Shown here: positions 1,589 to 27,853 of the stretch, piece by piece | Layout: every line of letters starts with the position of its first letter | How positions within the stretch are numbered: the stretch's first letter is position 1 | Source: an uncultured Candidatus Saccharibacteria bacterium | GTDB taxonomy: Bacteria; Patescibacteriota; Saccharimonadia; Saccharimonadales; CAYZZS01 | DNA length: 64,000 nt | NCBI GenBank assembly: GCA_964483035.1 | Contig: CAYZZS010000004.1 | Location: 10,081-74,080 of the forward strand | Direction: 5' to 3' | Notes under the pieces: model-generated | Seen by the model: only the letters and a program-made list of their open reading frames with translations | Database searches by the model: none | What the model was told of the DNA's origin: nothing | Made by a program: the position numbers and the translations under genes

Positions 1589-1980
1589 TAACTGCTCCTT
1601 GAAACGGGAATTAGATTAACCTGAAACGGCTTGTACCGCCCTTTGGTTTTTTCGTCTAACTCGACTGAGTAATCTCCTGCGTAGTATTGGGCAGTTTTGG
1701 TAGTCTTTGATTTAGGGTCGAAATAAGTTACGCCAAAATAGGGCTGATCGAGTTTGGCAACAATAGAGCTTATGTCGTCCTCTAGCAGCTCGCCGCCAAA
1801 TTCAAGTTCAAGCTTTGGGTAAATACCAATTAACGTAGCTCTGATGTCGCCAGCCATATTTCTCTCTGCATCTCTCCAGAGCTTGGCATGAGTTACCTTA
1901 TAGCTTTTTAATCCAGGTACGGATTGGTTGTCTATTTTAAGTAAGGTGGCATCGCTGACGGCTGGCATAATATTCCCCAA
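1588..1980 (-). CDS. Distal-tail-like structural protein (hypothetical)
   Basis: 130-aa ORF whose track start is TTG. An ATG at 1968 (MPAVSD...) is the more likely start. The call is by position, downstream of the tape measure. Confidence 0.45.
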   Translation of the reverse strand: MGNIMPAVSDATLLKIDNQSVPGLKSYKVTHAKLWRDAERNMAGDIRATLIGIYPKLELEFGGELLEDDISSIVAKLDQPYFGVTYFDPKSKTTKTAQYYAGDYSVELDEKTKGRYKPFQVNLIPVSRSS

Positions 1981-2036
1981 ATAAAAAAGCGGCCCCCTAA
2001 ATAGAGAGTCCGCGTTTTACTGGTGGTATTATACCA
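1979..2036 (-). promoter_or_regulatory. Cassette copy 1: extended -10 box followed immediately by an intrinsic terminator
   Basis: The minus strand reads TGGTATAAT-ACCACCAGT-AAAACGCGGACTCTCTATTTAGGGGGCCGC-TTTTTTATTT. It starts right after the stop codon of 2037..2645. Confidence 0.55.
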
Positions 2037-8543: not shown

Positions 8544-9071
8544 TTACAGCACGATTGAACCTTCGTATTTCGGCTCGTTGTTCGTGCCTTTTGATTTATC
8601 TTTTGGCGTTTCGCCCTTGAGTCGTTCGTTAACGCCTGCCTCAACTGCTTTTAGAAAGACCTTTTCAAACTTGTCGATGTTGTCCTTAGTTTTGTCAGGG
8701 TCAACGTCAACTAGAAAGTCCACTACGTCAGTTGAGATACCTTTTTCCTGTAGAGTTTCCCTCGCGTCAGCTCGGTTTTCTCGTAAGGTGATTTCGCGCT
8801 CTTTCGCGGCAGTCTCCTGCTCACGCTTTTTGCGCTCCTCGGCTTCCTTTTCCTCGGCTGACAACTTGGCTTGTCGCTCACGCTCTTCAAGTTCTTTAGC
8901 TAGTCGCTCTTCTAATTTCTTTTCAAGCCTAGCCTCTTTCTCGGCAAGCGTCTTTCTTAGCTGCTTGTCAAAGTCCTCTTGAGTAAAAGTTTTAGCCTTG
9001 GGGTCATCTCCCTTTTTGTCATCCTGCTGACCATCAGGATTAGGGTTGTTTTGCTTGTCTTGTTCAGACAT
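8544..9071 (-). CDS. Scaffolding protein
   Basis: 175 aa, highly charged K/E coiled coil (FTQEDFDKQLRKTLAEKEARLEKKLEERLAKELEERE). Confidence 0.7.
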   Translation of the reverse strand: MSEQDKQNNPNPDGQQDDKKGDDPKAKTFTQEDFDKQLRKTLAEKEARLEKKLEERLAKELEERERQAKLSAEEKEAEERKKREQETAAKEREITLRENRADARETLQEKGISTDVVDFLVDVDPDKTKDNIDKFEKVFLKAVEAGVNERLKGETPKDKSKGTNNEPKYEGSIVL

Positions 9072-9105
9072 CGCTACTCCTCCGTGTTACCGCCGTCGCG
9101 TTAGT

Positions 9106-9195
9106 AAAATAAAAAACGACCCCCGATGAGGGTCGTGAAATAGAAAAAACGCGCCCCAAGGCGGGAATCGCGTTTTATATGCTCACATTATACCA
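9106..9195 (-). promoter_or_regulatory. Cassette copy 2: extended -10 box followed by two tandem intrinsic terminators
   Basis: The minus strand reads TGGTATAAT-GTGAGCATAT-AAAACGCGATTCCCGCCTTGGGGCGCG-TTTTTTCTATTT, then CACGACCCTCATCGGGGGTCG-TTTTTTATTTT. Confidence 0.55.
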
Positions 9196-9201
9196 TATTT
9201 A

Positions 9202-9390
9202 TCAGTAGTCTACGATGCTTCCATCGTCGTCATAATGAGTTGAGTAGTAATCCTCATAGCTTTTAACTACCTCCGGTAGAGCCTTGCCCTTATCGGTAAG
9301 CTTCAATCCCTTGGCAAGATCATCATAGTCACGATAGTACCACTCTTTGTTGGTCATGAAGTACGGTGTGGACATGTCTGTATCCATCAT
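9202..9390 (-). CDS. Small acidic hypothetical protein
   Basis: I trimmed the start to the ATG at 9390, which overlaps the MuF stop as ATGA. The product is 62 aa, beginning MMDTDMSTPYFMTNKEWYY. Confidence 0.5.
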   Translation of the reverse strand: MMDTDMSTPYFMTNKEWYYRDYDDLAKGLKLTDKGKALPEVVKSYEDYYSTHYDDDGSIVDY

Positions 9391-11009
9391 TTCAGTCTTT
9401 CTGCTAGATACTGGCCCATTGCTTTTGCCCATATAGTCCTGCCTCCTAAACGATAGCTCACAAAGGCTTCTGCGAAGAACTCACGCGGATTGCGCATACC
9501 ATAATCGGACATTTCACCCAGTAGCGTGGCTCTCGATTTGCCAGAAATACCTTCTGCAATACCTATTATGTCATTTTGAATACTCCTTGCCAACTTGTCA
9601 CTCATAACATCCTTACCCATTAGATGGTTTTCTATGACATGCCCCATCTCGTGAGTGGCAGTATAGCGAGTATATTTTCGCTTAGGCACTTTCATCTTGA
9701 AGCCATTACTGATTTCATTGGCTAAGGAGCCAATATATGACTGCTTGTCTCTAAGGTGCTGCGTAGACAGCATAATGACAGCATTATTTCGCTGCGTCGC
9801 ACCCTTAGCCTGCATATTGCTTGCCTTCAACTCTATGCCATTCGGCCCTAAGCCTTTGCGTAATGATGGATAATCTTCAAGTATGCTATTTATTTCGGCG
9901 ACACTATCTCTGAATATAGTGCTATCAAGTCTTGCCGTTGTTATTGCATTGTATTTTAGTCCTGAATTAAGCATAACGATTGCACCTGACGTACTGGCCG
10001 CCATACCTGCCGATGAACTTTCTGCCATTCGTTCGCGCCACTGGTCGTAGCTGATATTGCCGATGTAGCGGTTTCTGCCAGTATTAGGGTCGCGCATGAT
10101 TCGCGCATCGGGTTCATACTCTTCGCCTAAGTACGCCCGTGTTGTAGAGCGGCAGTTAGGGTGCTGTGGGGGGTAGTTTTCACTACTGGTAACTGGAAAG
10201 CGGTTGCCATCGAGTGCTTGGCAAATTGAGCTGGTTCTAGTGTCAAGTGTGGCAACATAAACAAACTCTTTTATGCCAATACCTTTGTAGCTCTCAATCG
10301 AGGCGAGCGTATTAAAGTGGTTAGTCTCTGTCCTGACTAATCGGGCAGCCTGAAATCGGGTCACATTATAGCGATCTTTGAGTTGCTTTATTGTGCGACT
10401 ATGGCTTTGCCCTGTGATTACGGCTACAGCTAGATCATTTTTTAACCCACTGGCTAGCAATTCACTGTTTTTCCATATTCTCTTTGAGTAGTTCTGGCCG
10501 TGAAACTTGGTTTTGAGAATACGGTTAACGGCTCTGGTGTTGATCTGTGCGAAAGCTGGCGCAACACCCGTGCCTTTGGATAGGTTATACATGGCATAGT
10601 TGTAGGCCGTGTTGATTGTCTGGCGGTGGGCATTAGTCTGAATTGCAAGGTGTAATTGAGCGGCTTTTTTCGACTCTAGCCACATTTGGGCTTCTAGAAG
10701 TTCTAGGCGGGATAATCTGAAGCCGTAGCCCTCTGGCAGCTCGGCAATCAGTCCGGCAGCTCTTACGGCCTCCTGAAAGCGCAATATATCGCCGCTAGGA
10801 GCTATTTGCCGGAGTTTCTGCACATCCCAGCCGTTTTTCTTGTAGGCGGCTTCATAGAGCTTAAAGACTGCTGCTAAGTTCGCTCGTCTGGCGTCGAGGT
10901 AAATGCGGTCAATGGCTCTGAGGTGCGGCAAGGCTTGCTGTTCAACGTAGGCAAGCTGTTCGGCTGCCCGCTTATCCCAATAGGCGTTAGTTCGTTTTCG
11001 GAAAGCCAT
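9387..11009 (-). CDS. Minor head protein (MuF / SPP1 gp7-like) fused to a C-terminal HExxH metallopeptidase-like domain
   Basis: The MuF-like motif is TLDTRTSSICQALDGNRFPV...PPQHPNCRSTT. The C-terminal part carries TATHEMGHVIENH and PREFFAEAFVSY. Confidence 0.75.
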   Translation of the reverse strand: MAFRKRTNAYWDKRAAEQLAYVEQQALPHLRAIDRIYLDARRANLAAVFKLYEAAYKKNGWDVQKLRQIAPSGDILRFQEAVRAAGLIAELPEGYGFRLSRLELLEAQMWLESKKAAQLHLAIQTNAHRQTINTAYNYAMYNLSKGTGVAPAFAQINTRAVNRILKTKFHGQNYSKRIWKNSELLASGLKNDLAVAVITGQSHSRTIKQLKDRYNVTRFQAARLVRTETNHFNTLASIESYKGIGIKEFVYVATLDTRTSSICQALDGNRFPVTSSENYPPQHPNCRSTTRAYLGEEYEPDARIMRDPNTGRNRYIGNISYDQWRERMAESSSAGMAASTSGAIVMLNSGLKYNAITTARLDSTIFRDSVAEINSILEDYPSLRKGLGPNGIELKASNMQAKGATQRNNAVIMLSTQHLRDKQSYIGSLANEISNGFKMKVPKRKYTRYTATHEMGHVIENHLMGKDVMSDKLARSIQNDIIGIAEGISGKSRATLLGEMSDYGMRNPREFFAEAFVSYRLGGRTIWAKAMGQYLAERLK

Positions 11010-12568
11010 TAGCGCACCTCTATGTCTATAGTCATCGCGGCATCTTCAACGACTAATCCGGTAATTGTCTCACGGACTTCAATATCGGTTATTTGCTCTG
11101 TTGCTATAAGGTCGACTACCGAGTCTCCTACCTCCAGCTCAATATCCCTCTTTTGGATTTCCAGCTCGATAGTGTTGATGTCGATACCAGACAAGAAATG
11201 AAGTGTCGCTTCGTCTAGAGTAGAGGATGAGAAACTATTATGTATCTGTATATAATGTCTCTGGGTAAGGAGCAGTCGCTCAAGGCCGCTTACTGAAGAT
11301 ACCTTTTGCACGGTTAGCAATGCAGACTGACTAAGCGCCACAGCGCTCAAATCTGTTTCAGAGGACAGACTGGTAACTGTTAGTATAAAGCCCTGCGACA
11401 GATTGGCTTCGTTAAGTCTCGCGGCAGAGGTTAGGTCGCCAATGCTCAGGATGTGCTTTTGCGACAGGTTTGTACTGTCTATGGTTGTCGCTGACGTAAT
11501 GCCCTGCACGCTTAGCGGAGTTTCGGTTGCAAGTTCTATGGAGCCTAAGCTACCGCTAGATGATGCCGATTGTATGGTCAGGCCAGTCTGCGTGTCTAAC
11601 GTCAGGCTACCCAGGTTCGCTTCGCTTACTACATCATTTGTAGTGAGGCTGTATGATGCCTCTATTTGTACAGCTTCTAGCTCACTCGTTGAAGTGATAG
11701 TATCCACGATTAAAGTGACAGAGTGACTTAGCTCGATCGTACCCAGGTGAGCGGTAGAGGCAAGCCCTTGCGCTACAAGCTGGTGGCTCTGGGTTAGCGC
11801 GCTGGCTTCTAGCGCACTGGTGGTGGACATATTCTGGACTTCTAGTATGTGTTTCTGGACGAGCGGAATAGTTTCAAGCGAAGTGCTTGAAACCAGATCT
11901 TGTAGGGTGACAGCTCCGGCTTGGGTTAGTGCGAGGCTTGTTAAGGTCGATTCTGACGTAAGGCCGTTTACTGTCAGGCTGTGCTTTTGCGAGAGCGTAG
12001 CCGCGCTTAATGAAGCAGTAGAGGCTATGCCACTTACTGTTAGCGAGTGAGTTTGCGTCAGATTAGCGCTGCCTACCGCTGCTAGAGAGACAGCCCCTTG
12101 TACGGTGAGCGGCGTGTCGCTGGAGCCGTCGCCATACGTGGCGTAGATCGAGTACCGGAAGTTGTTATTCGTCGTACCGGAGGGGTCAGGGAAGTTGGCA
12201 GCATACGCGATTGCCCGAAAGCGACCGAGGCCCGCGGCGCTCTCACGCGCAATTGTGACGGCAAACGATCCATCAGCCCAGGCGAGTATGTAGTAGCTGC
12301 CTGCTGAGATAGTCGGTGGACTAGCGAAGTTGGCGGTATGCCACTGCGCGCCTGTCGGCAGCGAAATTTCTTCAGTCTGCGCTATCAACGCGTCCGTCAC
12401 GGCGTCGTAGAGAGCGAACTTAGCTTTACGGGCCGCATTGTTACTGTTCAAATACGCCGAGATGCTGGCAACCGTTCCCGCGTCCGCAGCGACCGGGCCT
12501 GCACCGAGAATGTTGCCGGACAGCTGACCGGTCGATCCCCCGACGGAGGTGTTACCGAAGGTTGCCAT
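11009..12568 (-). CDS. Virion-associated repeat protein (globular N-domain plus 13 x 22-aa Ser/Thr-rich repeats)
   Basis: 519 aa. From residue 170 I can lay out 13 consecutive 22-residue units, for example LTQTHSLTVSGIASTASLSAAT and LSQKHSLTVNGLTSESTLTSLA. Confidence 0.65.
   Translation of the reverse strand: MATFGNTSVGGSTGQLSGNILGAGPVAADAGTVASISAYLNSNNAARKAKFALYDAVTDALIAQTEEISLPTGAQWHTANFASPPTISAGSYYILAWADGSFAVTIARESAAGLGRFRAIAYAANFPDPSGTTNNNFRYSIYATYGDGSSDTPLTVQGAVSLAAVGSANLTQTHSLTVSGIASTASLSAATLSQKHSLTVNGLTSESTLTSLALTQAGAVTLQDLVSSTSLETIPLVQKHILEVQNMSTTSALEASALTQSHQLVAQGLASTAHLGTIELSHSVTLIVDTITSTSELEAVQIEASYSLTTNDVVSEANLGSLTLDTQTGLTIQSASSSGSLGSIELATETPLSVQGITSATTIDSTNLSQKHILSIGDLTSAARLNEANLSQGFILTVTSLSSETDLSAVALSQSALLTVQKVSSVSGLERLLLTQRHYIQIHNSFSSSTLDEATLHFLSGIDINTIELEIQKRDIELEVGDSVVDLIATEQITDIEVRETITGLVVEDAAMTIDIEVR
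11204..12061 (-). repeat. Tandem 66-bp (22-codon) degenerate coding repeats, about 13 copies
   Basis: The period was read from the translated protein. The units conserve L-[ST]-Q-x-H-x-L-x-V and a downstream S/T cluster. Confidence 0.7.
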
Positions 12569-12580
12569 CAGGTGGCCCGC

Positions 12581-12946
12581 CTAGCTTGCGTCTTGGATTT
12601 CGTATGCAAAGGCTGGTATCGAGACAGTGCCACCTTCTGTAAGCACCTGTGAGGTACAGGTAGTGACCAGAATGAGATTAGTGCTGTCACAGATAGCTAC
12701 GTGGGTAGCTGTGCCGCTATCGTCAATTTCAATGTCATTCTGTGCGCTGATAGTTACTTTTCTGCCTGACACGTCACCGTCGCCCTTGGTGAAGTCGCTT
12801 CCGTCTATAACGACATCCGCAAGCTTGTAAGTCGTGACCGCTTCTGTGCGATTCGTAGGCTCTGCGGAGCATACTGTTAGTATTGTTCCTTTTGCAATCT
12901 CATCTAATGCTGCGTCGAGGACTGCATCTGCTACATATTTTCCCAT
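12581..12946 (-). CDS. Hypothetical virion-module protein
   Basis: 121-aa ORF between portal and MuF. I recognise no motif. Confidence 0.45.
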   Translation of the reverse strand: MGKYVADAVLDAALDEIAKGTILTVCSAEPTNRTEAVTTYKLADVVIDGSDFTKGDGDVSGRKVTISAQNDIEIDDSGTATHVAICDSTNLILVTTCTSQVLTEGGTVSIPAFAYEIQDAS

Positions 12947-13019
12947 TACTTCTTCCCCTTGATTGTTGCGTTTGTTTTTACTATTACGTTATGGATATTC
13001 AATTTTACATCTGCCATGT

Positions 13020-13367
13020 TTAACTCCTTGTTATGTCTGCTATTACAGTGATTTCTTCCCGTTTCCGGCTCAACTTGTTTGCCTCAGCATCGACCAACTG
13101 CACGTCAAACCAGTACGTTCCTGGGTCTACATTCTCAAAATCGGCAGGAGTGATTTTGAAGCGTACTATTCCCTTTTCCGGCTCTGGTATGTCCGTAATT
13201 ATTTTCTGGATGGCTGCGGTAGTGTCATCCGCAGGGTTTTTGCTCTTATTGAGCGTCAGGTAAGCAGTCGCTCCTGTAAGGTCATACAGAGAGCCGTCAA
13301 CTTTCTTGAACGTCACCTTTATCGTTCTTGAATCGCCGTGGATGAGTTCATTGTCTTTGAGTTCCAT
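13020..13367 (-). CDS. Hypothetical virion-module protein (possibly Ig-like or decoration-like)
   Basis: 115 aa with a beta-rich pattern (IKVTFKKVDGSLYDLTGATAYLTL...GTYWFDVQLVD). It is coupled to the portal stop. Confidence 0.4.
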   Translation of the reverse strand: MELKDNELIHGDSRTIKVTFKKVDGSLYDLTGATAYLTLNKSKNPADDTTAAIQKIITDIPEPEKGIVRFKITPADFENVDPGTYWFDVQLVDAEANKLSRKREEITVIADITRS

Positions 13368-14692
13368 TATTCATCATCCTCGTCAGATTCGTTAGTACCG
13401 AAGTTGCCCATCTTCATGCGTTCATCACGCTCTTTTTTAGCCTTTTCGACCACCTCAGAAGCGTCCTCAACAAATGACAGTTGCGCCACTAGGGTTTCGT
13501 CGTCTACTTTTCCGTCCAGATTGTTGATTATCTGCGAAGTCTCAAAGTCGTTCTTCGGCAGCGCTCTGCGGAATACTAACTTAATAGCGTCTACGTCTAC
13601 TTGGCTAATCTTGGACTTGTACTGAAGCATAGTCAGATACAGCTCTAGGCGATTGCGGAGTCCAGTTGCCAGTAAGCGTTCCTTTTTCTTGACGTTCTGC
13701 TCAAAGGCTAGGAGTTTATACAGAATCGACACGCCAGATGGTGCATTGCCAAAGGTTTCATCTGTAAGATCAGGCGTCTTGGAGAACTTGTGTATATCGG
13801 CGGCTATGGTCTTGCGCAGGACGTCAGCATCAGCTTCATCGATGTTCTTGATGAGGTACTCGGCCTTAGAGCCTTCCGGCAAGCCAATAGTGCGATTTTT
13901 CTTTATACCTTCCTGATCTTCTTTCGTCAGCCTAGCGCCGTAAAACGCTAGTATTGCGTCTACCAGCTTCTCTCGGTCTAGTACTCGGTCAGATTGCAGA
14001 ATGTTGTATGCGTCTATCAAAGAAGTGACAGGCTCGTAGTCACCTTTCAGGCGGCGATTATTGAAATAGTGGATCACAGGCACTTCACCAAAGAAATGCT
14101 CTCTGTCGGGAGTATCGGGGACTTCCGTAAGGTCTGAGCCAGCTAGCCTACGGTGATGCACATGCGTTGGCGTCCAGATGGTTATGTCGTAATCGTCTTT
14201 GCTGTTGTTTATCTGGGCGTAGTACAGCGCTGCCATCTTTTCGTGCTTGAATGTGTCATCGTAAATAACGATGGTGTTGTAGACGCTTAGTTTAGAGCTG
14301 AGGATCTCGGAATCTTCATCAACGTAGACGGTCTCAAAAGCCTGTCCAAACATTGACAGATCTTCGGCTATGTCAGTATCTAGCTCCTCAATGCTCTGGG
14401 CTTTATAGGCGTCTATAAGAGGAGTGATGTCATCCTTGCCACCGGCTTTATAATCAACAGGGTTACCCACTAAATACCCAGTGTTGATAGAGGTGATGTA
14501 GTCAGCGAAGTTATGGATTGCCAGCAGCGGATTAGGGGATTGCCTGTCCATTTCTGGCTTGTCATCCATATACGATTCAAGACGCTTGAATATCTTGATG
14601 TTGTTCTTGTTGGCTTTTATCGCATCGGCGATGACTTCACCGTTTAGAATGTCGGTGTCTTTCGGTAGGGTGTATATGGTGCGCTTTTTCAT
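13367..14692 (-). CDS. Portal protein (SPP1 gp6-like)
   Basis: 441 aa, directly downstream of the large terminase, with an acidic C-terminus. Confidence 0.8.
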   Translation of the reverse strand: MKKRTIYTLPKDTDILNGEVIADAIKANKNNIKIFKRLESYMDDKPEMDRQSPNPLLAIHNFADYITSINTGYLVGNPVDYKAGGKDDITPLIDAYKAQSIEELDTDIAEDLSMFGQAFETVYVDEDSEILSSKLSVYNTIVIYDDTFKHEKMAALYYAQINNSKDDYDITIWTPTHVHHRRLAGSDLTEVPDTPDREHFFGEVPVIHYFNNRRLKGDYEPVTSLIDAYNILQSDRVLDREKLVDAILAFYGARLTKEDQEGIKKNRTIGLPEGSKAEYLIKNIDEADADVLRKTIAADIHKFSKTPDLTDETFGNAPSGVSILYKLLAFEQNVKKKERLLATGLRNRLELYLTMLQYKSKISQVDVDAIKLVFRRALPKNDFETSQIINNLDGKVDDETLVAQLSFVEDASEVVEKAKKERDERMKMGNFGTNESDEDDE

Positions 14693-14694
14693 GG

Positions 14695-14754
14695 CAAAAT
14701 AAAACGACCCCGCACAGATGTGCAGAGTCGCGTTTTACTGATTACATTATATCA
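14695..14754 (-). promoter_or_regulatory. Cassette copy 3: extended -10 box followed immediately by an intrinsic terminator
   Basis: The minus strand reads TGATATAAT-GTAATCAGT-AAAACGCGACTCTGCACATCTGTGCGGGGTCG-TTTTATTTT. The TGA is the terminase stop codon. Confidence 0.55.
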
Positions 14755-16014
14755 TAATTCGATAAAATGTATGCGCCTGTCGTCCACTTCCCTTGCGTAA
14801 CAAATAATCGCTGCATCAGCTAGGTCAGGTGATCTAAAGCCACGCTTTTTGTAATCATCCTTTGATTCGACCTTACGTTTGCCCTTGTTGTCCATCTTCC
14901 ATTGTCTTGTGGTGAGTTCCATTAACAGGTTAGTATCATGCGGCAATTCAGCCTCACGGATGACTTCGGCCATGTGAAACCACGCCTCACTAATCCAGTT
15001 GGGGTATTTATCATCATCAATCGCCTTAGCCCCGAAGTTCACCGCTTTGATGTTCTTATAGCCTCGGTTCATCATGTCGTCAGTCACGCCACCACCAACG
15101 CCAGTATCATCTATGCGGATTTCCAGCTCCTTATCAAAGCCAACAAAATCTTCTAATAAATCACAGGTTTCAGTCGTGCGCTTCTTGGTGTAGACCGTAT
15201 ACTTGATGGTCTTTAAGCCTTTACGCATCCAGAATACGATTCTATCGTCACCCATGCGGGCAATGTCAGCTCCGACAATCACCGCGCCATCGCCCTTAAC
15301 TTTGCGACTCATTGCCTCTAGTGCAGCAGTACGAGGGATTATAGCGGTATCTCCCTGGCTTACTGGTTCGCCAAGCCACTTATGGGCATAGAGTTCGGGG
15401 TCAGTTTTCTTGTCATGCTCCATCTCCTTGCGGAGCACATCAGGGAATATGCCATACTTTTCTGCAACGTCGTAATTCACCTTGAGAGAAAAAGTATCCT
15501 CTGGCGGATTCATGACGTATTTAACGTACACAGGGTCAAGCTCAGTCATTCGGTTGAATGTAAAAATAAGCTGCGAGCCGTCTTTTCTAACGGTAGGTGA
15601 TAGGATGTCTAGGCTTTCTTCGCTGACAGATTGCGCTTCTTCAACCCAGCAAATATCAATGCCCTCAAGGGACTTAACGCTTTGGGTCGTGCCTTTTTTC
15701 AGCCCCTTGAATATAAAGTTCGACCCCGTAACGGTGTTTATGATTGATGTATTTGTGTACTTAAAGTCTGTGAATTCATACAGCTCGATAATATCTTTAA
15801 GTAGCTGCATGCTGGAGTCATCTATAGAGTTCTGAAGCTCACGAGTACAGAGTATGCGAACCTTGTCTTTTCTAGCCCTTAGTATTAGCGATCTAGCCAC
15901 GCTATGCGATTTCGTGCTGCCTCGACCGCCATAGAAAACCAAATTACGCCACTTAGGGTTAAACAGTTCCTTAAACTCTGCTGGAATATCAACTATCGTT
16001 TCGCTGGTCGTCAT
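14752..16014 (-). CDS. Terminase large subunit
   Basis: 420 aa with the Walker A-like motif [12 protein letters not shown] and a C-terminal nuclease-type region. Confidence 0.85.
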
Positions 16015-16405
16015 CTTCGCCCATAAACCTGACTAGCGCTGTTTTGAGTGGCTGATCGTCACTGGTCATATCGGTGCGGTCTTTCCAGCCAAAGCGATTC
16101 TTCATGTTCATGTACCAGCCGGTAAAGTTGAACTCTTTGTTGGTGAGGTTTGTTCGGCCTTTTCTGTGCCACCAAGCTTCAGCTAGCAATTTTCCGGTTT
16201 TTATGGTTTCCGAAAATTCTGGCTCTTCTAGCAGCCATCTATCCCATAAATCATTTGAAAAGCTACCACGCCACTCGTGTATTAGTGCCTTAATTTCTAC
16301 GTCAGACGCACCTTCTCTATACAAATTTAGTATGTTGTCATACCAGTTTTTGGGCAGAGAACTCAGGTCTTCTTTTGGTCGTCCTGGTTTAGAAATTCCT
16401 CCCAT
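15989..16405 (-). CDS. Terminase small subunit
   Basis: 138 aa containing [35 protein letters not shown] (HTH-like), immediately upstream of the large subunit. Confidence 0.65.
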
Positions 16406-16944: not shown

Positions 16945-17105
16945 ACATCCTCCTCAAATTGTTCATAATGCCACGTTATAAATAAATCGTAGATGTAATC
17001 GTAATGGTCTTGGTAGTCCATCGGGTGTTCCATAAGCTTTTCCATGTTGTCTCTGACGAACTCGGCCACCTCATTGGCGATAAGCTCCGGTTTGACGATG
17101 TTCAT
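16941..17105 (-). CDS. Small acidic hypothetical protein
   Basis: I trimmed the start to the ATG at 17105 (MNIVKPELIANEV), which overlaps the GT2 stop as ATGA. Confidence 0.45.
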   Translation of the reverse strand: MNIVKPELIANEVAEFVRDNMEKLMEHPMDYQDHYDYIYDLFITWHYEQFEEDV

Positions 17106-17689
17106 ACCCGTACCCCCTTTTTGAAGTAATCCCACGTTAGACTGCCCACTCGTTTGTTGTAGTAGTAGGCATAAATATCGGTGAATTTGCATGTCGGGTT
17201 TTTAGCTAGAAGCTCCCGATGGACTTTTTGATCTTCGTGGATGCGTACAGGATCGGGGCGGATGTCGCCTAAAAACTCACGCCTGATAAACTTGCCGTTA
17301 CCAACCCATCTATTGACGTTCTCTTTGTATATTCTGCGCTTTCGTCCATCGCTATACTGGATGTTATAGAAGACCAAATCTTCTCCCTTGAGCTGGTTAA
17401 TGACTCTATTTACGTCTGGTAGGAAGTAATCATCGCTATCAAGCTGCACGATATAGTCTGCTGTGGCTTCATCCATGAGTCGAGCGAGTGAGTAGCCTAT
17501 ACCCATGTTTTCATCGTTAGATATAAGGGTAATGCTGCGATTGTCGGATAACTTCTCGATGACTTTTAGGGTGTTGTCGGTGCTAGCGTCGTCGCAGACT
17601 AGTACGTTGCAGTTTCTAGGTATGGAGTTGATAGCTTGCCTGATCAATTCCTCTTGGTTGTACACCGGTATGATTACGTCAACGGTCAT
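17102..17689 (-). CDS. Family-2 glycosyltransferase
   Basis: Contains VIIPVYNQEELIRQAINSI...VCDDASTDNT...QLDSDD, a GT-A fold with DxD-type motifs. Confidence 0.8.
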   Translation of the reverse strand: MTVDVIIPVYNQEELIRQAINSIPRNCNVLVCDDASTDNTLKVIEKLSDNRSITLISNDENMGIGYSLARLMDEATADYIVQLDSDDYFLPDVNRVINQLKGEDLVFYNIQYSDGRKRRIYKENVNRWVGNGKFIRREFLGDIRPDPVRIHEDQKVHRELLAKNPTCKFTDIYAYYYNKRVGSLTWDYFKKGVRV

Positions 17690-18402
17690 TTTTCAAACTC
17701 CGAGGGTTCGGGGAAGTGAGTGCGTAGGTCTTCTACCCACCGTCTAGTTGATAGTATCTCGCCCTCTAAGAGCTTGCCTGTGGTCGTCTTGCGGTCTTTG
17801 TACTGTTTACCGCCAATTTTGTAGATGTTTCCGTAGAGGCTCCTGCTGGCTAGTGTCACTCCTGCGGACTCTTGGACCCTCATTATCTCCAGGCGTTTCT
17901 GCTTGTTGTAGATGATTGGCGCATGGACTTCGTAGTTTTTGGGGTCTTTTATTCCTTGTTCAATAAGGAAGTCTCTGGTCTTGGATTTCGTCCTGAGCCA
18001 TGTGTTATGACCCTTGAATTCTTTTAACTTGCCGTCATAGAGTGGTTCTATCTCGATAGGTTTGGTAATGAAGAAGTCGTCATTGAAGAATATGAAGTCA
18101 TCTGCGACTCGTTCGTCATCCAGTATTGCCTTGACCTTGTTCCTGGTGTCTATGGGCTTGATGTGTGAACGCTTGAAGCCGTCAATCATTGTGATCCTGT
18201 CACTAAACCAATCCTCTTTGTCGCCGCACACAAACACTTCACCGTTCCAGTTGGTGATGTTCTTGAGGGAGCGCATGGAGTAACGTAGCTCTTTGCCTTT
18301 GTCGCTAGTGCGCTTGTAGATATAACAGACTGGATATTTCATAATGTTTAGTTGACCCGATTCCGTGCTGACTGCATATATTTGATTGTGTTGGTAGTCC
18401 AC
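17686..18402 (-). CDS. Stealth-family-like sugar-1-phosphate transferase
   Basis: KELRYSMRSLKNITNWNGEVFVCGD and FFNDDFF resemble the Stealth CR2/CR3 blocks as I recall them. The track start is GTG; an ATG at 18342 is an alternative. Confidence 0.5.
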   Translation of the reverse strand: MDYQHNQIYAVSTESGQLNIMKYPVCYIYKRTSDKGKELRYSMRSLKNITNWNGEVFVCGDKEDWFSDRITMIDGFKRSHIKPIDTRNKVKAILDDERVADDFIFFNDDFFITKPIEIEPLYDGKLKEFKGHNTWLRTKSKTRDFLIEQGIKDPKNYEVHAPIIYNKQKRLEIMRVQESAGVTLASRSLYGNIYKIGGKQYKDRKTTTGKLLEGEILSTRRWVEDLRTHFPEPSEFEK

Positions 18403-18690
18403 CGGCTATGCTTGCGAGGTACGAGATGCTTTTAGTAGCCTAATAAAACGCGCTTGCCCCAGCACGGAAGCAGGCCAGCTATTCGCCCTCCCTTTAAGCA
18501 CTAACTAGGAGGCGCAGCGAGTACTCTGCGCCATATAACTGTCTTTGGAGGGTAACCCAAAGTTAGGGATTGCTCCCTAGTTAACGCTCAATTTGTTAGT
18601 TTTCCAGTGATCTGCCCTAAAAATAGCAGATGTAATCAGTTAAACCTAGTGCTAATGGTTACTTTATTGTAAAATATTTGACAAATTATA
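18403..18690 (-). promoter_or_regulatory. Candidate late promoter, ~236-nt structured leader and terminator-like hairpin ahead of the late operon
   Basis: The minus-strand TATAAT is at 18685-18690. Verified local hairpins lie at 18511-18532, 18543-18562 and 18564-18579. The hairpin 18449-18466 is followed on the minus strand by TTTTATT. Confidence 0.45.
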
Positions 18691-18706
18691 CTACTTATGC
18701 TACTAT
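18678..18706 (+). promoter_or_regulatory. Near-consensus sigma70-type promoter (TTGACA-17 nt-TACTAT)
   Basis: TTGACA is at 18678-18683 and TACTAT at 18701-18706. The promoter sits back-to-back with, and overlaps, the minus-strand TATAAT. Confidence 0.6.
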
Positions 18707-18711
18707 GCATA

Positions 18712-18907
18712 CAGTAAGGTTAAGGTATAAAGGATAGATACTACCTTACAAAACAGCCCGGAAAGTATGGGGAACATCAGTCTCCGCAAGACTGTCATTC
18801 GGCGGAATGTTAAACGGTTCCTTTCATCATCCACCAAGGGCTGTTTTTCTTTTATAAAGAAAGAGGCCCAGGGGATAGACCGGCAGAGCCGGAACCTGGG
18901 CTTTTTT
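18712..18907 (+). ncRNA. Candidate phage small RNA 1 (about 139 nt to the first U run, about 196 nt to the second terminator)
   Basis: Starts at CAGTAAGG, 5 nt after the -10 box. Helices: GTAAGGT/ACCTTAC, CAGCCC(18754)/GGGCTG(18838), CAGTC/GACTG. T runs lie at 18844-18848 and 18902-18907. Confidence 0.5.
18856..18907. terminator. Bidirectional intrinsic terminator
   Basis: The GCCCAGG...CCTGGGC stem is flanked by an A run upstream and TTTTTT downstream. Confidence 0.6.
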
Positions 18908-19007
18908 ATTATACGACATGAAATGCGAAATATCTTCTATCTGTTCCCGTAATTCCTTAGTCATAGCTGCTCAAAACCTCCCACTGTAATAACCCATTTG
19001 TCTAACT

Positions 19008-19038
19008 ATCAAAAATAGAAAAGAGCCCGAAGGCTCTC
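19008..19038 (-). terminator. Intrinsic terminator closing the upstream (early/middle) minus-strand operon
   Basis: The minus strand reads AGAGCCTTCGGGCTCTTTTCTATTTTT. Confidence 0.6.
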
Positions 19039-19259
19039 TTACGCTCGTCTGGAATAACACTATTCTAGCACGAGGCAAGCTTAAGGTACACAGAAATCCT
19101 GATAATAGAAATGGGAGCTGTATGCTCAGCTCCCAGCGTTCTTGGAAAGTGCCATTATTATAGCATTTTCTAGTTCGTCACGCACCACATTCCCGTAGGT
19201 GCTAATTAAAGGTACCCTATCACTGGGCGCCAGGGTTTTGTTTGCTCTGAATTATACTC

Positions 19260-19694
19260 TCATTCACTTCGAGATACAGATTTAATCGTATTTATAACAC
19301 TCGAAACATTCGTTTTTATATTTGGCGTTTTTACGGAGATACTTTGACCAGGTAAGTTGATTTTTACTCTATCACTCATCTCTGCCCCCCCATCTAGTTC
19401 TTTGCGAAGGGTGGCTAGGCGTAATTCATCAGCTCTCTCCATCTGGTCAACCGCTTCTTCAAAGCCAGCCTTAAAGTCAAAGGATTCGTTCATCCCAAGC
19501 ACAAGGCTTTTAGGTCGCTCCAGCTCATCAATCCTTGCCAGCTTCTCAAGGTTTGAGATGAGGGCTTTAATAGCGTCTACTTGGTAGTTAAGCGCCTTTT
19601 CTTCGTCCATACCGCCAGCGCTAGTGTCCATGTTGTATGTGTAGAAACAGTGCTTGATTGAGTCTTCTAGCTCGTCTGTAGTGTTTTTGCTCAT
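19260..19694 (-). CDS. Acidic hypothetical protein
   Basis: 144-aa ORF, the last gene before the terminator. It contains a G7 run (plus-strand C7 at 19385-19391). Confidence 0.5.
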   Translation of the reverse strand: MSKNTTDELEDSIKHCFYTYNMDTSAGGMDEEKALNYQVDAIKALISNLEKLARIDELERPKSLVLGMNESFDFKAGFEEAVDQMERADELRLATLRKELDGGAEMSDRVKINLPGQSISVKTPNIKTNVSSVINTIKSVSRSE

Positions 19695-22891: not shown

Positions 22892-23042
22892 ACTCCATTG
22901 CCCTTTTAATCGTTTTCTTGCTGTAGAACATGCTTTTTTGGCCTTCCTCCGCCGCGTGAGGCGCGGCCGCCCATTGCAGCGACCCGCCGTCTGGTTTCTG
23001 GTGAGGCCGATCCTAAACCTCGCTTCTTCTTTGGTTTCTCCA

Positions 23043-23243
23043 TTACTCCCCTCGTTTTTTTCTGCGGCTGATTCTGCCGCCCTTAGCGCCTGCTATTCGT
23101 GCAAGCTCCCTGTTCTGGTAAAAGCCTCCAGTGCGGCCTTTCTTACCGCCCATAGCCCCGATGCGCTTGTAAAAGTCATCTCCGAACTTAGCTTTATTGG
23201 TTGCTGCTGCTAATTTGCCGCCTTCTGTTGTTCCGGCCATCAT
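23043..23243 (-). CDS. KGG-repeat general-stress-like small basic protein
   Basis: GGKKGRTGGF...AGAKGGRISRRKK resembles KGG-repeat stress proteins. Confidence 0.45.
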   Translation of the reverse strand: MMAGTTEGGKLAAATNKAKFGDDFYKRIGAMGGKKGRTGGFYQNRELARIAGAKGGRISRRKKRGE

Positions 23244-23580
23244 ATCTCCCTAAGTGATTTGTTTTGTTGAAATGACAGGGGTAGCCGCAAAGATACTGGA
23301 TATTAGTTAAATCCATTTTCCGGTTGGCATGACTGCCCCGGTTCTGTATATGGTCAACGTCCAAAGTATTGTCCTCGCTTTCTCCCCTGCCACAATCGGC
23401 GCATTTGCGTCCGAATGTCTCATCTAAAAACGGTTTCGCTACTTCATCTCGCCACTTTTCGTACTCAAGCTGCCGTTTTCCTTTCCGCCTGATACGGTTG
23501 CTGCGCTTGATTGGCGTCCGTGGCTTTTTGAAACAGTAAAATGAAGTGTGCTCCGCACTGTCACAATGCTTGCAAACCAC
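23194..23580 (-). CDS. HNH endonuclease
   Basis: Contains CADCGRGE...DVDHIQNRGSH...NIQYLCGYPCH. Confidence 0.8.
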   Translation of the reverse strand: MVCKHCDSAEHTSFYCFKKPRTPIKRSNRIRRKGKRQLEYEKWRDEVAKPFLDETFGRKCADCGRGESEDNTLDVDHIQNRGSHANRKMDLTNIQYLCGYPCHFNKTNHLGRYDGRNNRRRQISSSNQ

Positions 23581-26459: not shown

Positions 26460-27008
26460 TTAGTACCAATGACCCATATCCCGTCCGTTGATTGGCACTC
26501 TCGCTTTCCAGTGGGCTAAGGCTTTGGCTGGCGTGCTGTAGCGTTCGGCTATATAGTCGATTCCCCACTCTATTTGACTCTCCACACTTGATGGATCGGG
26601 GATTTTGCTGCACGGCCACGCTTGGGGGATGCCGCAGGCGGCGCTGTGAGGGTTCTTGGCGTTCGGATTCCATCCGCTTTCTCTATGCCACAGCTCCTCT
26701 AGTGCCTCCCACTGCGTCCCATGCCAGCCCTTTGCCTCGGCTTTCTGTTTAGCGAGGGATTTTGGGTCGGTTGGTACTGGTTCCGGCTTCGGCTCGGTCT
26801 CAGTTTTCACGGCTTCCACTTCGACAATGTTTGGTACTTGAAGTGGAGCTTGTGTTTCCTGTGTCACTTGTTCCGCCAGAGTTATTTCCTCTGCCGTAGG
26901 TTGAACCGAATTGTTAATGTTCGCCGGAGTTTGCCGGATGAGGAGTACGAATATTCCGCATACGGCCAGTAGCTTTATGACCACTGATACCCCCTCTGAG
27001 GACTCCAC
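26460..27008 (-). CDS. Membrane-anchored lytic transglycosylase-like protein
   Basis: GTG start, an N-terminal TM segment, then ESGWNPNAKNPHSAACGIPQA (an SLT-type E-S-G...Q block). Confidence 0.55.
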   Translation of the reverse strand: MESSEGVSVVIKLLAVCGIFVLLIRQTPANINNSVQPTAEEITLAEQVTQETQAPLQVPNIVEVEAVKTETEPKPEPVPTDPKSLAKQKAEAKGWHGTQWEALEELWHRESGWNPNAKNPHSAACGIPQAWPCSKIPDPSSVESQIEWGIDYIAERYSTPAKALAHWKARVPINGRDMGHWY

Positions 27009-27126: not shown

Positions 27127-27158
27127 CAAAAAGAAAAACCCCGCCGTTAGTGGCGGGG
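27127..27158 (-). terminator. Strong minus-strand intrinsic terminator upstream of the first leftward gene
   Basis: The minus strand reads CCCCGCCACTAACGGCGGGGTTTTTCTTTTT. Confidence 0.6.
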
Positions 27159-27178
27159 TCTATCCCTGTTATGCTATT

Positions 27179-27198
27179 TACATTTTATAAAAAATGTA
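27179..27198. promoter_or_regulatory. Perfect 8-bp inverted repeat (TACATTTT-ATAA-AAAATGTA), operator-like
   Basis: Read directly. It lies between the plus-strand TTGACA promoter and the leftward genes. Confidence 0.45.
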
Positions 27199-27206
27199 CT
27201 TTAGTA

Positions 27207-27235
27207 TTGACACAAGGTCATTTATTTGCTAAAAT
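27207..27235 (+). promoter_or_regulatory. Near-consensus sigma70-type promoter (TTGACA-17 nt-TAAAAT)
   Basis: TTGACA is at 27207-27212 and TAAAAT at 27230-27235. Confidence 0.6.
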
Positions 27236-27239
27236 CGCA

Positions 27240-27588
27240 ACTCGTAAGTCACAGTATGTGTTCTTACGCACCTTATACCCCCAATTCTAACAGTTTCGGT
27301 CCTTTGGATCGGAGCATATGTTAGGTGTTTTAGAGCGTGCCAATATAAGTTGTTACCCTCCACTTATTGTGGCGCATCCGCTCGTGTAGCGTGATAGCGC
27401 TCTAAAACAAATTATTCCCTTTAACCCCGCGTTCCCCCCTCGTTGTAGTTGAGGCTTGGCGGTAACGACGGACATACCTGAGTGGGCCTAAAGCTGACTT
27501 TGCGAGACAGCTTTAGGAGGCCTTCAAGGTGGGTTGAAGGGTGTAAAGAGCCTCCAGCGGTGCCCACCCCCTCTGGAGGCTCTTTTTA
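27240..27588 (+). ncRNA. Candidate ~350-nt structured ncRNA 2 at the phage/host junction
   Basis: No credible ORF. Verified helices: 27243-27248/27263-27268, 27327-27337/27398-27408 (11 bp perfect), 27487-27496/27508-27517 (10 bp perfect), 27521-27527/27534-27540. A terminator closes the unit. Confidence 0.55.
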
Positions 27589-27590: not shown

Positions 27591-27847
27591 AGAATTACAC
27601 TTATTAGATTCATCTGTTAGGTGCTCTATTCCGAGTGGTATGTCGCTTCGGCATCAGCATTCACTGCATACTTGGTGAGATAATAATTCGGGCTTTTTGT
27701 GGAAATCTTCTTTGTAATGACGAATGAGTCCTCATTATCCTCACATGGATAACCCCCCTTGCCCCAAGGCTGGCGCAGGTGTAGGGAGTTATCTGGCTCA
27801 GACGACTATTACGGGCAGCAAATATTGTAAAATATTTAGAAATATGG

Positions 27848-27853
27848 TATAAT
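27848..27853 (+). promoter_or_regulatory. Extended -10 promoter (TGGTATAAT) giving a leaderless or near-leaderless mRNA
   Basis: The TATAAT ends 3 nt before the first ATG (27857) and 6 nt before the second (27860). Confidence 0.45.

Follow-up and report, generated by a model that had tools for sequence, protein, structure and literature searches.

The closest described counterparts of the locus analysed here are promoters that lie a short distance ahead of a terminator or stem-loop. In lambdoid phages the late promoter PR' is always active, and its transcript is terminated immediately downstream in lysogens (PMC7547250). Terminators at 40–60 nt from the promoter are functional in the E. coli greA leader (PMC2836576), and both this leader (GraL, PMC2836576) and PR' (StxS, PMC7547250) give abundant RNAs of 40–75 nt, which may be either by-products or regulators. 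T4-like phages carry PeSL motifs, short intergenic elements that recur many times in a genome, join a promoter to a stem-loop, and mark the edges of exchangeable modules (PMC2839356, PMC4122927). Read-through of intrinsic terminators for middle or late transcription is brought about by small RNA polymerase-binding proteins, gp39 in Thermus phage P23-45 and p7 in Xanthomonas phage Xp10 (PMC3351154, PMC6624301), and a structured or sequence-specific RNA that is transcribed near the beginning of an operon allows read-through of later terminators in the case of HK022 put (PMC9378689), Bacillus EAR, and lambda nut. We analysed the late operon of a prophage in a window of 64,000 nt (the whole stretch of DNA examined), in which sequence comparison strongly supports a family of cassettes where a genuine extended −10 promoter leads into a genuine intrinsic terminator.

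Three sites on the minus strand of the window (2036–1978, 9195–9139, and 14754–14695) shared the architecture TGnTATAAT-N9-10-AAAACGCG-hairpin-T-run, as the first-pass annotation of this DNA had claimed. The pattern TATAAT-N8-12-AAAACGCG occurred three times in the window, always on the minus strand (2011–2033, 9169–9192, and 14729–14751), and never in 100 dinucleotide shuffles, so that no match is expected by chance. All three copies matched the extended −10 consensus TGnTATAAT and began close to the upstream stop codon (0, 0, and 6 nt), both of which had been noted before, and their predicted terminated transcripts of 34–44 nt agreed with the earlier estimate of about 35–45 nt.

Copy 3 (14695–14754, minus strand) had its box, spacer, hairpin, and T-run exactly where they had been reported, with the large terminase gene (14752–16014) on one side and an SPP1-type portal gene (ATG at 14692) on the other. 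Its box TGATATAAT occupied 14754–14746, and the TGA in this box ends the large terminase reading frame. The predicted start was the A at 14739, the leader motif AAAACGCG was found at 14736–14729, and the hairpin GCGACTCTGCAC-ATCT-GTGCGGGGTCGT at 14731–14704 led into a T-run at 14704–14696, with TTTTATTTT ending at 14696. RNA folding gave −21.1 kcal/mol (z −6.3) for the coding strand and −10.9 kcal/mol for the opposite strand. Copy 2 (9139–9195, minus strand) lay between a Mu-F-like gene with a 76-aa ORF and the scaffold gene, and consisted of the box TGGTATAAT (9195–9187), a predicted start A at 9180, the leader AAAACGCG (9176–9169), and a hairpin (9174–9148) followed by a T-run; its folding energy of −13.7 kcal/mol was equal on both strands. 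In tandem with copy 2 was a second terminator without its own promoter (9106–9136, minus strand), in which ACGACCCTCATCGGGGGTCGT was followed by TTTTTTATTTT, and its hairpin (9136–9116) folded at −14.1 kcal/mol (z −4.4).

Copy 1 (1978–2036, minus strand) lay between a 202-aa ORF, which follows the tape measure gene, and a DUF6711 gene. Its box TGGTATAAT (2036–2028) stood immediately 3' of a TAA stop codon, followed by a predicted start A at 2021, the leader AAAACGCG (2018–2011), a hairpin (2013–1989), and a T-run (1988–1979), and folding gave −15.3 kcal/mol (z −3.7) on the coding strand compared to −7.1 kcal/mol on the opposite strand. The gene contexts of the cassettes, including the terminase/portal junction of copy 3, and the 5' arm CGCG(G)ACTCT common to copies 1 and 3 were as first described. 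A fourth copy with the same motif was located just past the left end of the window (L137 11533–11590), between a tail-fibre-like gene and two small ORFs. A looser fifth copy at the early/late boundary (19008–19165, minus strand) kept the order of promoter and then terminator without the AAAACGCG motif. It had the box TGCTATAAT (19165–19157), a predicted start A at 19150, a first hairpin at 19135–19112 followed by TTTCTATTAT (−18.7 kcal/mol, z −5.1), and a second hairpin at 19040–19019 followed by TTTTCTATTTTT (−12.4 kcal/mol, z −2.3). Each genome had four to five such units, one at each module boundary.

We assembled 65 unique cassettes and five more from further genomes of the window's clade; sorted on the first 11 hairpin nucleotides, these 70 formed 29 groups. 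The box matched the Gram-positive TRTGnTATAAT consensus: TGnTATAAT was present in 64 of the 65 unique cassettes as well as in the three window copies, and TRTG in most. The sixth base after TATAAT was always a pyrimidine (65/65) and the seventh nearly always an A (61/65). No −35 element or other conserved upstream motif was found across the cassettes. The same box is used by intergenic promoters of the host itself, in two of which an ATG stands at the predicted start, and host genes in the window terminate with the same type of hairpin and T-run.

The cassette hairpins had folding energies of −11 to −21 kcal/mol, with a T-run of 5–8 that began 0–2 nt past the stem and followed every copy, including the cassette at the operon start. 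In 66 of the 70 cassettes the hairpin was more stable as coding-strand RNA, and G-U pairs made up 111 of the 829 hairpin pairs. The hairpin began 0–10 nt from the predicted start site, and the stem took in the first transcribed base itself in L012-clade cassettes at the MuF|scaffold junction. Stem covariation, which the first-pass annotation had suggested as a check together with a search of related phages, was seen in part: all 11 stem pairs were preserved in eight variants of type A, with one compensatory change, but the comparison across types was dropped, as the stems were out of register in the MAFFT alignment.

Relatives of the window phage were found as prophages in two Candidatus Saccharibacteria metagenome-assembled genomes, with proteins 40–60% identical, and it is through these relatives that the window is assigned to a probable Saccharibacteria (TM7) host. 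They carried promoter-then-terminator units at the operon start, at the MuF|scaffold junction, after the tape measure gene, and before the probable lysis module, the last about 7 kb beyond the one after the tape measure gene, and their hairpin sequences were unrelated to those of the window at the same junctions. The MuF|scaffold junction had a cassette in every related phage examined, and the tandem second terminator was also present at this junction in the relatives. When coding-strand TGnTATAAT sites were collected first in these phages, 23 of 25 were followed within 0–17 nt by a hairpin and T-run, compared to none of four sites in the host DNA of the window. In Lactococcus phage TP901-1, which has the same gene order, the relaxed pattern TGnTAnAAT gave 14 sites on the coding strand, again none with a hairpin and T-run. 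The reading of these units as promoter into terminator is strongly supported by comparison, since the order and the box-to-hairpin spacing were kept across divergent phages while the hairpin sequences turned over. At the nucleotide level, blastn of positions 9000–16100 against 50,697 phage records returned only a 99-nt match in the terminase.

Judged from these sequence features, the cassettes resemble lambdoid PR'-tR'/Q in having a host-type promoter closely ahead of an intrinsic terminator at the head of late genes, with a short terminated RNA as the predicted default product. The position of PR'-tR' is held by the boundary unit (19165–19019) and by the copy before the probable lysis genes. 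However, there are four to five units per genome compared to one in lambda, the terminator begins 3–10 nt after the start compared to an end at about +194 in lambda, and the cassettes are of the extended −10 class without a −35 element. Furthermore, no sigma-dependent pause element was found here, nor any Q-family gene in Pfam and PHROGs scans of most early and first late ORFs of at least 66 aa.

The cassettes share with PeSLs the mutual resemblance of copies inside one genome. However, the stem-loop of PeSLs is just upstream of the promoter (PMC4122927), the usual order of terminator before promoter, whereas here it is downstream of the box and would thus be carried in the RNA; the promoters of PeSLs are of the early type, with −35 and −10 elements, and PeSLs flank variable accessory ORFs rather than core late modules. 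Membership in the PeSL family was therefore rejected on the reversed order of promoter and stem-loop and the lack of a −35 element. The middle and late promoters of P23-45, which gp39 spares, are also of the extended −10 class, but a terminator right after each promoter is not described for gp39 or p7 in PMC3351154 and PMC6624301, and the general family scans of the window gave nothing of this kind. The greA leader and StxS are likewise promoters with a terminator within tens of nt, but they are single 5'-leader loci and not a family at module boundaries with a common leader motif. We also considered the cassettes as morons or moron scars and rejected this, because 3–10 nt between start and hairpin leave no room for an ORF and because positions and features are conserved across clades.

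The explanation that we tentatively favour is that the cassettes are late promoters of a constitutive, extended −10 kind, each blocked by a terminator of its own, and that antitermination would release them together. From the promoter and terminator signatures, the anatomy, and the conservation reported above, we infer promoter firing, termination at the hairpins, and its relief. Each cassette would be a strong, host sigma-A-type late promoter, extended −10 without −35, with the transcript predicted to start 3–10 nt ahead of a Rho-independent terminator. In the absence of a phage signal, for example in a lysogen, polymerase starting at a cassette would halt after about 35–45 nt and polymerase arriving from upstream would halt at the same terminator, so that every late module would be silent. 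During lytic growth, an antitermination activity, which may be an RNA polymerase-binding protein, an RNA-binding protein, or an RNA, would carry polymerase past all the terminators, and each module (terminase; portal and head-assembly; scaffold, capsid, and tail tube; tail tip; probable lysis genes) would then be supplied with its own polymerase.

This reading draws on the L012/L094-type phages, in which the first cassette lies opposite a divergent TTGACA-N16-TATAAT promoter, and has no co-directional gene upstream; no other consensus promoter was found ahead of the late operon. Its terminator has a folding energy of −18 to −19 kcal/mol. With no co-directional gene upstream of this cassette, late transcription must therefore pass its terminator. 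Antitermination, which the first-pass annotation had also proposed, thus appears to be the most coherent reading, but the scans did not yield an antiterminator: no Q, N, NusG-like, RinA/ArpU, or sigma-like families were found with Pfam and PHROGs in most early and first late ORFs of at least 66 aa in the window and L012. The ORF in the Q position, upstream of the boundary promoter, encodes 144 aa and is an orphan with no usable homologues. Except for a small Gly/Lys-rich protein, no early proteins were shared between clades, so no factor travels with the cassettes. If a terminator stands at the start of every transcription unit, the first expression after infection would need leakiness or a host factor.

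If true, late expression in these phages would be controlled purely at termination, through several constitutive promoters that are each locked by a terminator. This would be a modular version of the lambda PR'-tR' design, of which we found no description in the literature searched, and it predicts an antitermination factor, protein or RNA, with the clade-specific leader motifs pointing to its binding site. To our knowledge, there has been little or no experimental work on transcription in Saccharibacteria and their phages. The cassettes also provide an easily recognised annotation mark of late-module boundaries, and for synthetic biology they may offer compact parts in which a promoter is silent until unlocked.

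The leader motif was common to all cassettes of one genome and differed by clade, being AAAACGCG(G)AC in the window and TCTACGAC and CATTTGCGA in relatives. The leader 8-mers were almost confined to cassettes and overlapped the base of the 5' stem arm, and in L143 the motif persisted even beside a degenerated hairpin. The motif is likely the recognition site of the antitermination activity.

A conserved late-leader RNA element at 18402–18463 (minus strand; covariance model R1, 65.7 bits, E about 1e-14) contained the 12-mer CGCGUUUUAUUA, which was invariant in six seed genomes and is exactly complementary to the cassette leader UAAAACGCG. By model R1 the element was found once per genome in every genome of the window's phage clade, and it was confined to this one clade. 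The link between the element and the cassettes is hypothetical. Its place at the head of the late operon is right for a role like that of put, EAR, or nut, but it differs from them in having no Rfam match, in its restriction to one clade, and in its complementarity to cassette leaders, which has no counterpart there. Rfam at the gathering score detected only two tRNAs in the whole window, and at E up to 5 the region 18300–19350 gave chance-level matches with nothing credible and no put, EAR, or riboswitch family. RNAalifold reported only helix P1 of the element, with wobble-compatible changes. Helix P2 differed in sequence between genomes but not in place, and each P2 alone was not significant against shuffles. 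In IMG/VR the exact element pattern matched the L087 contig only, and of 61 further matches to a relaxed pattern, none fitted model R1.

One form of antitermination that the element invites, and that we consider improbable, is guided by RNA sequence: the element, possibly pseudoknotted, would pair with the cassette leaders and thereby undo all the terminators. CGCGUUUUAUUA can pair over 9–12 nt with every cassette leader (A/G)UAAAACGCG, which takes in the lowest pairs on the 5' side of each terminator stem, and the stem would be shortened beside the U-tract, with termination abolished at every cassette. The element could act in trans or from RNA still attached to polymerase. In the reverse arrangement, the tiny cassette RNAs would bind and silence the late-leader element. 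The L150 phage has the variant 12-mer UGCGUUUUACUA, for which a co-varying cassette leader would be expected to read UAGUAAAACGCA.

The complementarity also bears on the first rival to plugged promoters, namely that each cassette is a minimal small-RNA gene, whose 35–45 nt product would act in trans and consist of a 5' seed (A)GUAAAACGCG and the terminator hairpin. The target of this RNA in the window's clade would be the late-leader element, in which the 12-mer CGCGUUUUAUUA is complementary to the seed. The tiny-RNA reading, raised by the first-pass annotation, gained in that the seed complement CGCGTTTTA was found only once per genome on the coding strand, in this conserved element upstream of the late genes, and lost in that the corresponding leader complements of other clades (L012, L001), GTCGTAGA and TCGCAAAT, had no consistently placed coding-strand site in the sequence searched. 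A seed common to a genome's cassettes with differing hairpins fits this explanation, and short PR' transcripts that can act as small RNAs set a precedent (StxS, PMC7547250). The seed, however, is partly inside the stem, and the exact placement at module boundaries directly upstream of start codons would be unneeded for an independent small-RNA gene. Relatives also have antisense promoter-then-hairpin units, similar in plan to the antisense promoter-then-terminator arrangement of lambda OOP RNA. Because the first cassette in the L012/L094 types is the only consensus late-operon promoter found, it cannot be solely a small-RNA gene, and we regard the small-RNA explanation as unlikely.

The short distance from start to hairpin could instead indicate that one hairpin does two jobs without a dedicated factor, ending and protecting the 3' end of the upstream mRNA and capping the 5' end of the next. 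The terminators would be constitutively leaky or bypassed by just-started polymerase, and together they would fix the expression ratios between modules; we regard this reading as quite unlikely. Each mRNA would then have a hairpin at both ends, in keeping with hairpins that begin 0–10 nt from the predicted start and, at MuF|scaffold in the L012 clade, include the first transcribed base. The greA leader terminates about two thirds of its transcripts constitutively (PMC2836576), and the family scans found no regulator. However, a 5' cap would not need a T-run, yet one of 5–8 T follows every copy, even at the operon start, where no transcript arrives that would need terminating. Leaky or factor-dependent terminators do not typically have strong stems and long T-runs. 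With the tandem terminator at MuF|scaffold, constitutive read-through would come at a cost right ahead of the virion proteins made in greatest amount, and in the lysogen of a temperate phage the late genes must be off.

Relations between genomes raise the possibility that the cassettes are mainly recombination junctions at which modules are exchanged, the role suggested for PeSL motifs in T4-like phages, with any role in expression being secondary. The large terminase of the window belongs to the Terminase_3 family and has no relationship to its counterparts in L087 and L012, but the adjoining portals are 55–61% identical, and therefore a module swap ends at the cassette. The same hairpin types were found at different junctions in different genomes, and the two cassettes of L001 have one hairpin variant, as is likewise the case within L003, a sameness that reflects concerted evolution. 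But recombination sites need neither a consensus promoter box, nor a fixed start-site A, nor a T-run, and these promoter and terminator features are kept where the sequences are too divergent to recombine. Exchange at the cassettes is more plausibly a by-product of their presence than their purpose, and recombination as the main function is very improbable.

The last reading in the first-pass annotation, that the −10-like box is no promoter but a sigma-dependent pause site that makes elongating polymerase more prone to stop at the terminator, is extremely improbable: the box is indeed on the non-template strand upstream of the terminator and sigma is able to rebind elongation complexes (PMC4604602), but the predicted pause, about 10–17 nt past the box, would come as polymerase enters the 5' arm instead of at the U-tract, an alignment of the leaders AGTAAAACGCG, AGATCATCTACGAC, AGATTTCTACGAC, and AATCATTTGCGAC, read by eye, showed no TAnnnT pause element (a −10-like element in the initial transcript) in a consistent place, and the conserved pyrimidine-A start site, the full TRTGnTATAAT consensus, and the operon-start cassette, where no polymerase arrives from upstream, would be left unexplained.

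A recurring GTCAAT upstream of cassettes was considered as a further cassette motif and rejected, as it is the −35 hexamer of the divergent promoter on the other strand. In the L094-type phages, this divergent promoter is followed by a terminator-like hairpin too.

The third cassette in the window lies on the minus strand at 14754-14695, between a large terminase gene (ORF 14752-16014, Pfam Terminase_3) and an SPP1-type portal gene (ORF 13367-14692). Its -10 box, TGATATAAT, supplies the TGA stop codon of the terminase ORF, and six bases separate it from the predicted transcription start, the A at 14739. This A is followed by GT, by the leader motif AAAACGCG (14736-14729), by a hairpin of 12 pairs including three G-U pairs (GCGACTCTGCAC / GTGCGGGGTCGT, 14731-14704) and by TTTTATTTT, with the ATG of the portal ORF three bases on. 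All elements of the promoter-then-terminator order proposed in the first-pass annotation were present. The pattern TATAAT-N8-12-AAAACGCG occurred three times in the window, on the minus strand only, versus none in 100 shuffles, which agrees with the proposal of three copies of one architecture; the distances to upstream stop codons, the common 5' arm and the 35-45 nt length of the predicted transcripts were also as claimed. Copy 2 (9195-9139, minus strand) is located 3' of a Mu-F-like gene and a 76-aa ORF and 5' of the scaffold gene, with a second terminator behind it (9136-9116, minus strand). Copy 1 (2036-1978, minus strand) separates a 202-aa ORF, which comes after the tape measure gene, from a DUF6711 gene. 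A fourth AAAACGCG cassette was found just outside the window in L137, a contig of the same phage (11533-11590), with a 610-aa tail protein on one side and two small ORFs, which may be lysis genes, on the other.

Upstream of the last cassette, which precedes the probable lysis genes, a second TGnTATAAT lies at a distance of 60-80 nt and is itself followed by a hairpin (L119 22480-22640; L115 20824-20960; L137 11470-11590). This additional box reads TGGTAAAAT in L115. Its hairpin has a U-rich tail in the L012-type contigs L119 and L115 and none in L137, and the tandem arrangement is kept in both clades. Three loci (L090, L091, and L092) are read-archive assemblies of the window's phage, and several of its short-read contigs start in or beside copy 3, 52-130 nt before the portal gene, which may mean that assembly is disrupted by the repeated cassettes.

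Positions 1 to ~27100 of the window are phage DNA in which only the minus strand carries genes: early ones (exonuclease, SSB-like, HNH, and methyltransferase fragment) extend from ~27000 to ~19260 and late ones from ~19165 to beyond position 1. Positions 27100-64000 are chromosomal, encoding peptidyl-tRNA hydrolase, Der GTPase, a two-component system, Glu-tRNA synthetase, a sortase, and two tRNAs. Portals most similar to that of the window (52-56% identity) came from oral-type viral contigs and from two metagenome-assembled genomes that carry the name Candidatus Saccharibacteria, which makes a Saccharibacteria bacterium the probable host.

An IMG/VR pattern scan for the full motif gave 59 matches, approximately the number expected by chance. 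One 21.8-kb contig (L022, L061, L087) carried the cassette at the same three junctions as the window and once more, ahead of its small late ORFs, and the L043 contig carried it at two junctions. We also applied a purpose-written terminator scan to every related locus as well as the window. In more distant phages (L001-L015, L093-L103), TGnTATAAT was located 0-17 nt upstream of nearly all of the strongest intergenic coding-strand terminators of the structural region, with hairpins unrelated to those of the window, and downstream fragments of such genomes had more cassettes after the tape measure gene and ~7 kb further. Closer relatives, found via a small late protein (L143, L146, L149, and L151), had cassettes at the terminase–portal and MuF–scaffold junctions. 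Across the related phages as a whole, the box-then-hairpin layout was kept and the hairpin sequences were not. Because the terminase–portal junction of L012-type phages is only ~12 nt long and has no cassette, the cassette at this junction is specific to the window's clade.

The association also emerged when only perfect TGnTATAAT boxes from eleven representative loci were used as input and the hairpin was not presupposed. A hairpin and T-run followed within 17 nt at 23 of the 25 phage coding-strand boxes, compared to a chance expectation of ~1%, as the scan detects about 1-8 terminators on each strand of these phage loci (10-23 kb). One of the two exceptions (L043 2261) had a weaker first hairpin and then a second terminator. 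The box at 19165, at the early/late boundary, had a hairpin 21 nt on and a poorer T-run. No terminator followed any of the four host boxes in the window or any of the 14 coding-strand boxes (relaxed to TGnTAnAAT) of Lactococcus phage TP901-1, whose structural genes are in the same order.

The Gram-positive consensus TRTGnTATAAT was matched by the cassette box and its upstream bases, and host intergenic regions in the window use the same box. Among unique cassettes, the sixth base after TATAAT was a pyrimidine in 65/65 and the seventh was A in 61/65, a preferred start-site pair at the expected distance from the box. A passive repeat would not retain this pair while the six intervening bases vary freely. 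Neither a -35 element nor another common upstream motif was found among the cassettes. In two host promoters of the type TGGTATAAT (27845-27862, plus strand; 57045-57027, minus strand), an ATG coincides with or adjoins the predicted start, pointing to leaderless mRNAs in the host.

The hairpins were far more stable than their shuffles (z from -2.5 to -6.3). Coding-strand RNA was more stable than its complement in 66/70 unique cassettes (mean -14.0 vs -10.2 kcal/mol), and the stems contained 111 G-U pairs, which are mismatches on the opposite strand. In one hairpin type, 11/11 pairs were kept across 8 variants, with one A-U to G-C exchange, and L001 and L003 differed by a matched insertion of G in one arm and C in the opposite arm. 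Host genes in the window finish in ordinary hairpin and T-run terminators, so this organism's polymerase presumably recognises the cassette signal. In the E. coli greA leader, terminators located 40-60 nt from the promoter are functional (PMC2836576).

Our best, tentative reading is a set of late promoters, each plugged by its own terminator, that a single antitermination signal would release together. The first cassette of L012/L094-type phages is back to back with a divergent TTGACA-N16-TATAAT consensus promoter, no upstream gene runs into it, and no other consensus promoter was found between its terminator and the first late gene. With this as the only consensus promoter found there, polymerase can reach the terminase, portal, and head genes only by passing its terminator (-18 to -19 kcal/mol, about 10-45 nt after the start site), the same logic as lambda PR'-tR' (PMC7547250). 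Internal cassettes would follow the same plan: a constitutive promoter inside a prophage late region would need a plug, a single signal could release every copy, and the doubled terminator before the scaffold and capsid genes would be the tightest lock on the most productive unit. Thermus phage P23-45 combines extended -10 late promoters with a polymerase-binding antiterminator (PMC3351154). Antitermination, among the functions first proposed, is thus favored by the operon-start cassette. No recogniser of the leader motif was identified in Pfam and PHROGs scans of most early and first late ORFs (66 aa or more) of the window and L012 or by comparing early proteins between clades.

All cassettes of one genome have in common a short motif spanning the leader and the first bases of the 5' arm. 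It reads AAAACGCG(G)AC in cassettes of the window's clade; those of the L012 clade have (A/T)TCTACGAC and those of the L001/L131 clade CATTTGCGA. The upper stems and loops differ. Leader 8-mers were almost confined to cassettes, and L143 retained the motif although the adjacent hairpin had no T-run and termination had apparently shifted to a second hairpin. Because of these two features, the motif's function appears tied to the sequence itself, for example as a recognition site.

Every genome of the window's clade also has, upstream of the late genes, one copy of a ~62-nt leader RNA element (window 18402-18463, minus strand; L087 302-363, L143 9662-9723, L146 7879-7942, L149 8074-8133, L151 3920-3981, L150 8669-8731). 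The covariance model R1 gave 66-77 bits for the six seed genomes and for L144, a phage of the L143 type, and 29 bits for the divergent L150 element; it detected none in other clades or TP901-1, and the element matched no Rfam family. The 12-mer CGCGUUUUAUUA within it, invariant in the seed genomes, is the exact complement of the cassette leader and allows 9-12 consecutive pairs with every cassette. On the coding strand of these genomes, CGCGTTTTA occurred only in the element. The 12-mer varies only in L150, whose contig ends before any cassette. It may sit in a pseudoknot formed by two weakly supported helices, one having wobble-compatible changes and the other having differing sequences at the same place that are not individually significant. 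The element could be an RNA key blocking the terminator stems, a target of tiny cassette RNAs, or unrelated.

As such a target it would be the partner required if the cassettes were small-RNA genes, which would account for the common leader motif as well. We consider this unlikely, as it leaves the operon-start cassette unexplained and does not account for the partner's absence in other clades. Quite doubtful, too, is a single hairpin doing two jobs with leaky termination: it would explain the hairpin's closeness to the start site, but not the T-run conserved where nothing needs terminating, the doubled terminators, or silence in the lysogen.

Cassettes might also be recombination junctions. 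The window terminase (14752-16014, Terminase_3) is unrelated to those of L022/L087 (214-1605) and L012 (8566-9987), of which the L087 and L012 proteins are 42% identical to each other, whereas the adjoining portals are homologous (55-61% identity); module exchange therefore ends at the cassette. Within each of L001 (6527 and 13784) and L003 (6391 and 13649), two cassettes evolve in concert, having the same hairpin variant and second terminator, which differ between the genomes; the pattern indicates gene conversion between copies ~7 kb apart. As a function, however, recombination is very improbable and seems a consequence. A sigma-dependent pause, also suggested at first, would suit a box on the non-template strand upstream of a terminator but is hardly credible, being without support and predicting the pause at the wrong place.

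Lambdoid PR'-tR'/Q, which has the promoter-then-terminator core in common with the cassettes, is the closest known system, but no Q gene was found among the ORFs scanned, no pause element was seen in the leaders, and the cassettes are not single-copy. PeSL motifs are the closest repeated composite elements, in the opposite order. Full-text literature searches turned up neither a report of such an arrangement nor work on transcription signals in phages of Saccharibacteria. Function is read from sequence throughout; what makes the cassettes interesting is that they are conserved, that their host group is little studied, that the factor is missing, and that a leader element is complementary to them.

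Several further units were observed. Beside the first late cassette (L094 6880-7010, L008 1642, and L012 7016, all minus strand), the divergent promoter has a terminator-like hairpin at ~+20 and a second hairpin covering the ribosome-binding site of a gene for a 129-139 aa protein, upstream of the integrase gene. Antisense units in which a strong hairpin and T-run immediately follow a promoter lie opposite late genes in L002 (12944), L001 (11875), L005 (2071), and L100 (6742), all on the minus strand, one example being TTGACA-N17-TAGTAT followed by GCCTCCCC...GGGAGGT; the plan recalls lambda OOP RNA. At the upstream phage edge (~27137-27210, minus strand), the hairpin GACCCCGCC...GGCGGGGTT and TTTCTTTTT come 21 nt after a TAAAAT box; this arrangement, placed before ORF 26460-27008, may be a further promoter-then-terminator unit heading the early genes. 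On the plus strand, ~350 nt without a convincing ORF or an Rfam or ARAGORN match (~27230-27585) end in a very strong terminator at the prophage boundary (27546-27584, -23.8 kcal/mol) and may be an unrecognised RNA gene used as attachment site.

Between 18400 and 18700 (minus strand), a ~280-nt leader extends from a TAGTATAAT box (~18692-18684) to a Stealth_CR2-like ORF (17686-18402, minus strand). This ORF and a GT2 glycosyltransferase gene (17102-17689, minus strand), a pair also found in L150, appear to be accessory insertions separating the leader element from the small late ORFs. A plus-strand unit (18678-18905) has a TTGACA-N17-TACTAT promoter and, ~190 nt later, a strong terminator (18865-18902, -21.7 kcal/mol); its transcript, which would contain a 61-aa ORF or act as a small RNA, is antisense to a 45-aa minus-strand ORF (18827-18964). 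Just upstream of the leader element in L087, a 24-codon ORF (99-170, plus strand) encodes a CCHC zinc-knuckle peptide (MSMPNKICPICHQFGHTAGKCPYK), and the window HNH protein (23194-23580) starts with a similar knuckle. The only early-region products common to the window's phage and the L012 clade were small Gly/Lys-rich proteins resembling KGG-repeat stress proteins (window 22906-23243 and L012 2175-2474, both minus strand). In the chromosomal part, tRNA-Glu (37264-37338) directly adjoins a minus-strand gene for a large serine recombinase (37298-38833), which has a TGGTATAAT box ~440 nt upstream (39292-39284) and may belong to a second mobile element including a HerA-like gene (51429-54266).
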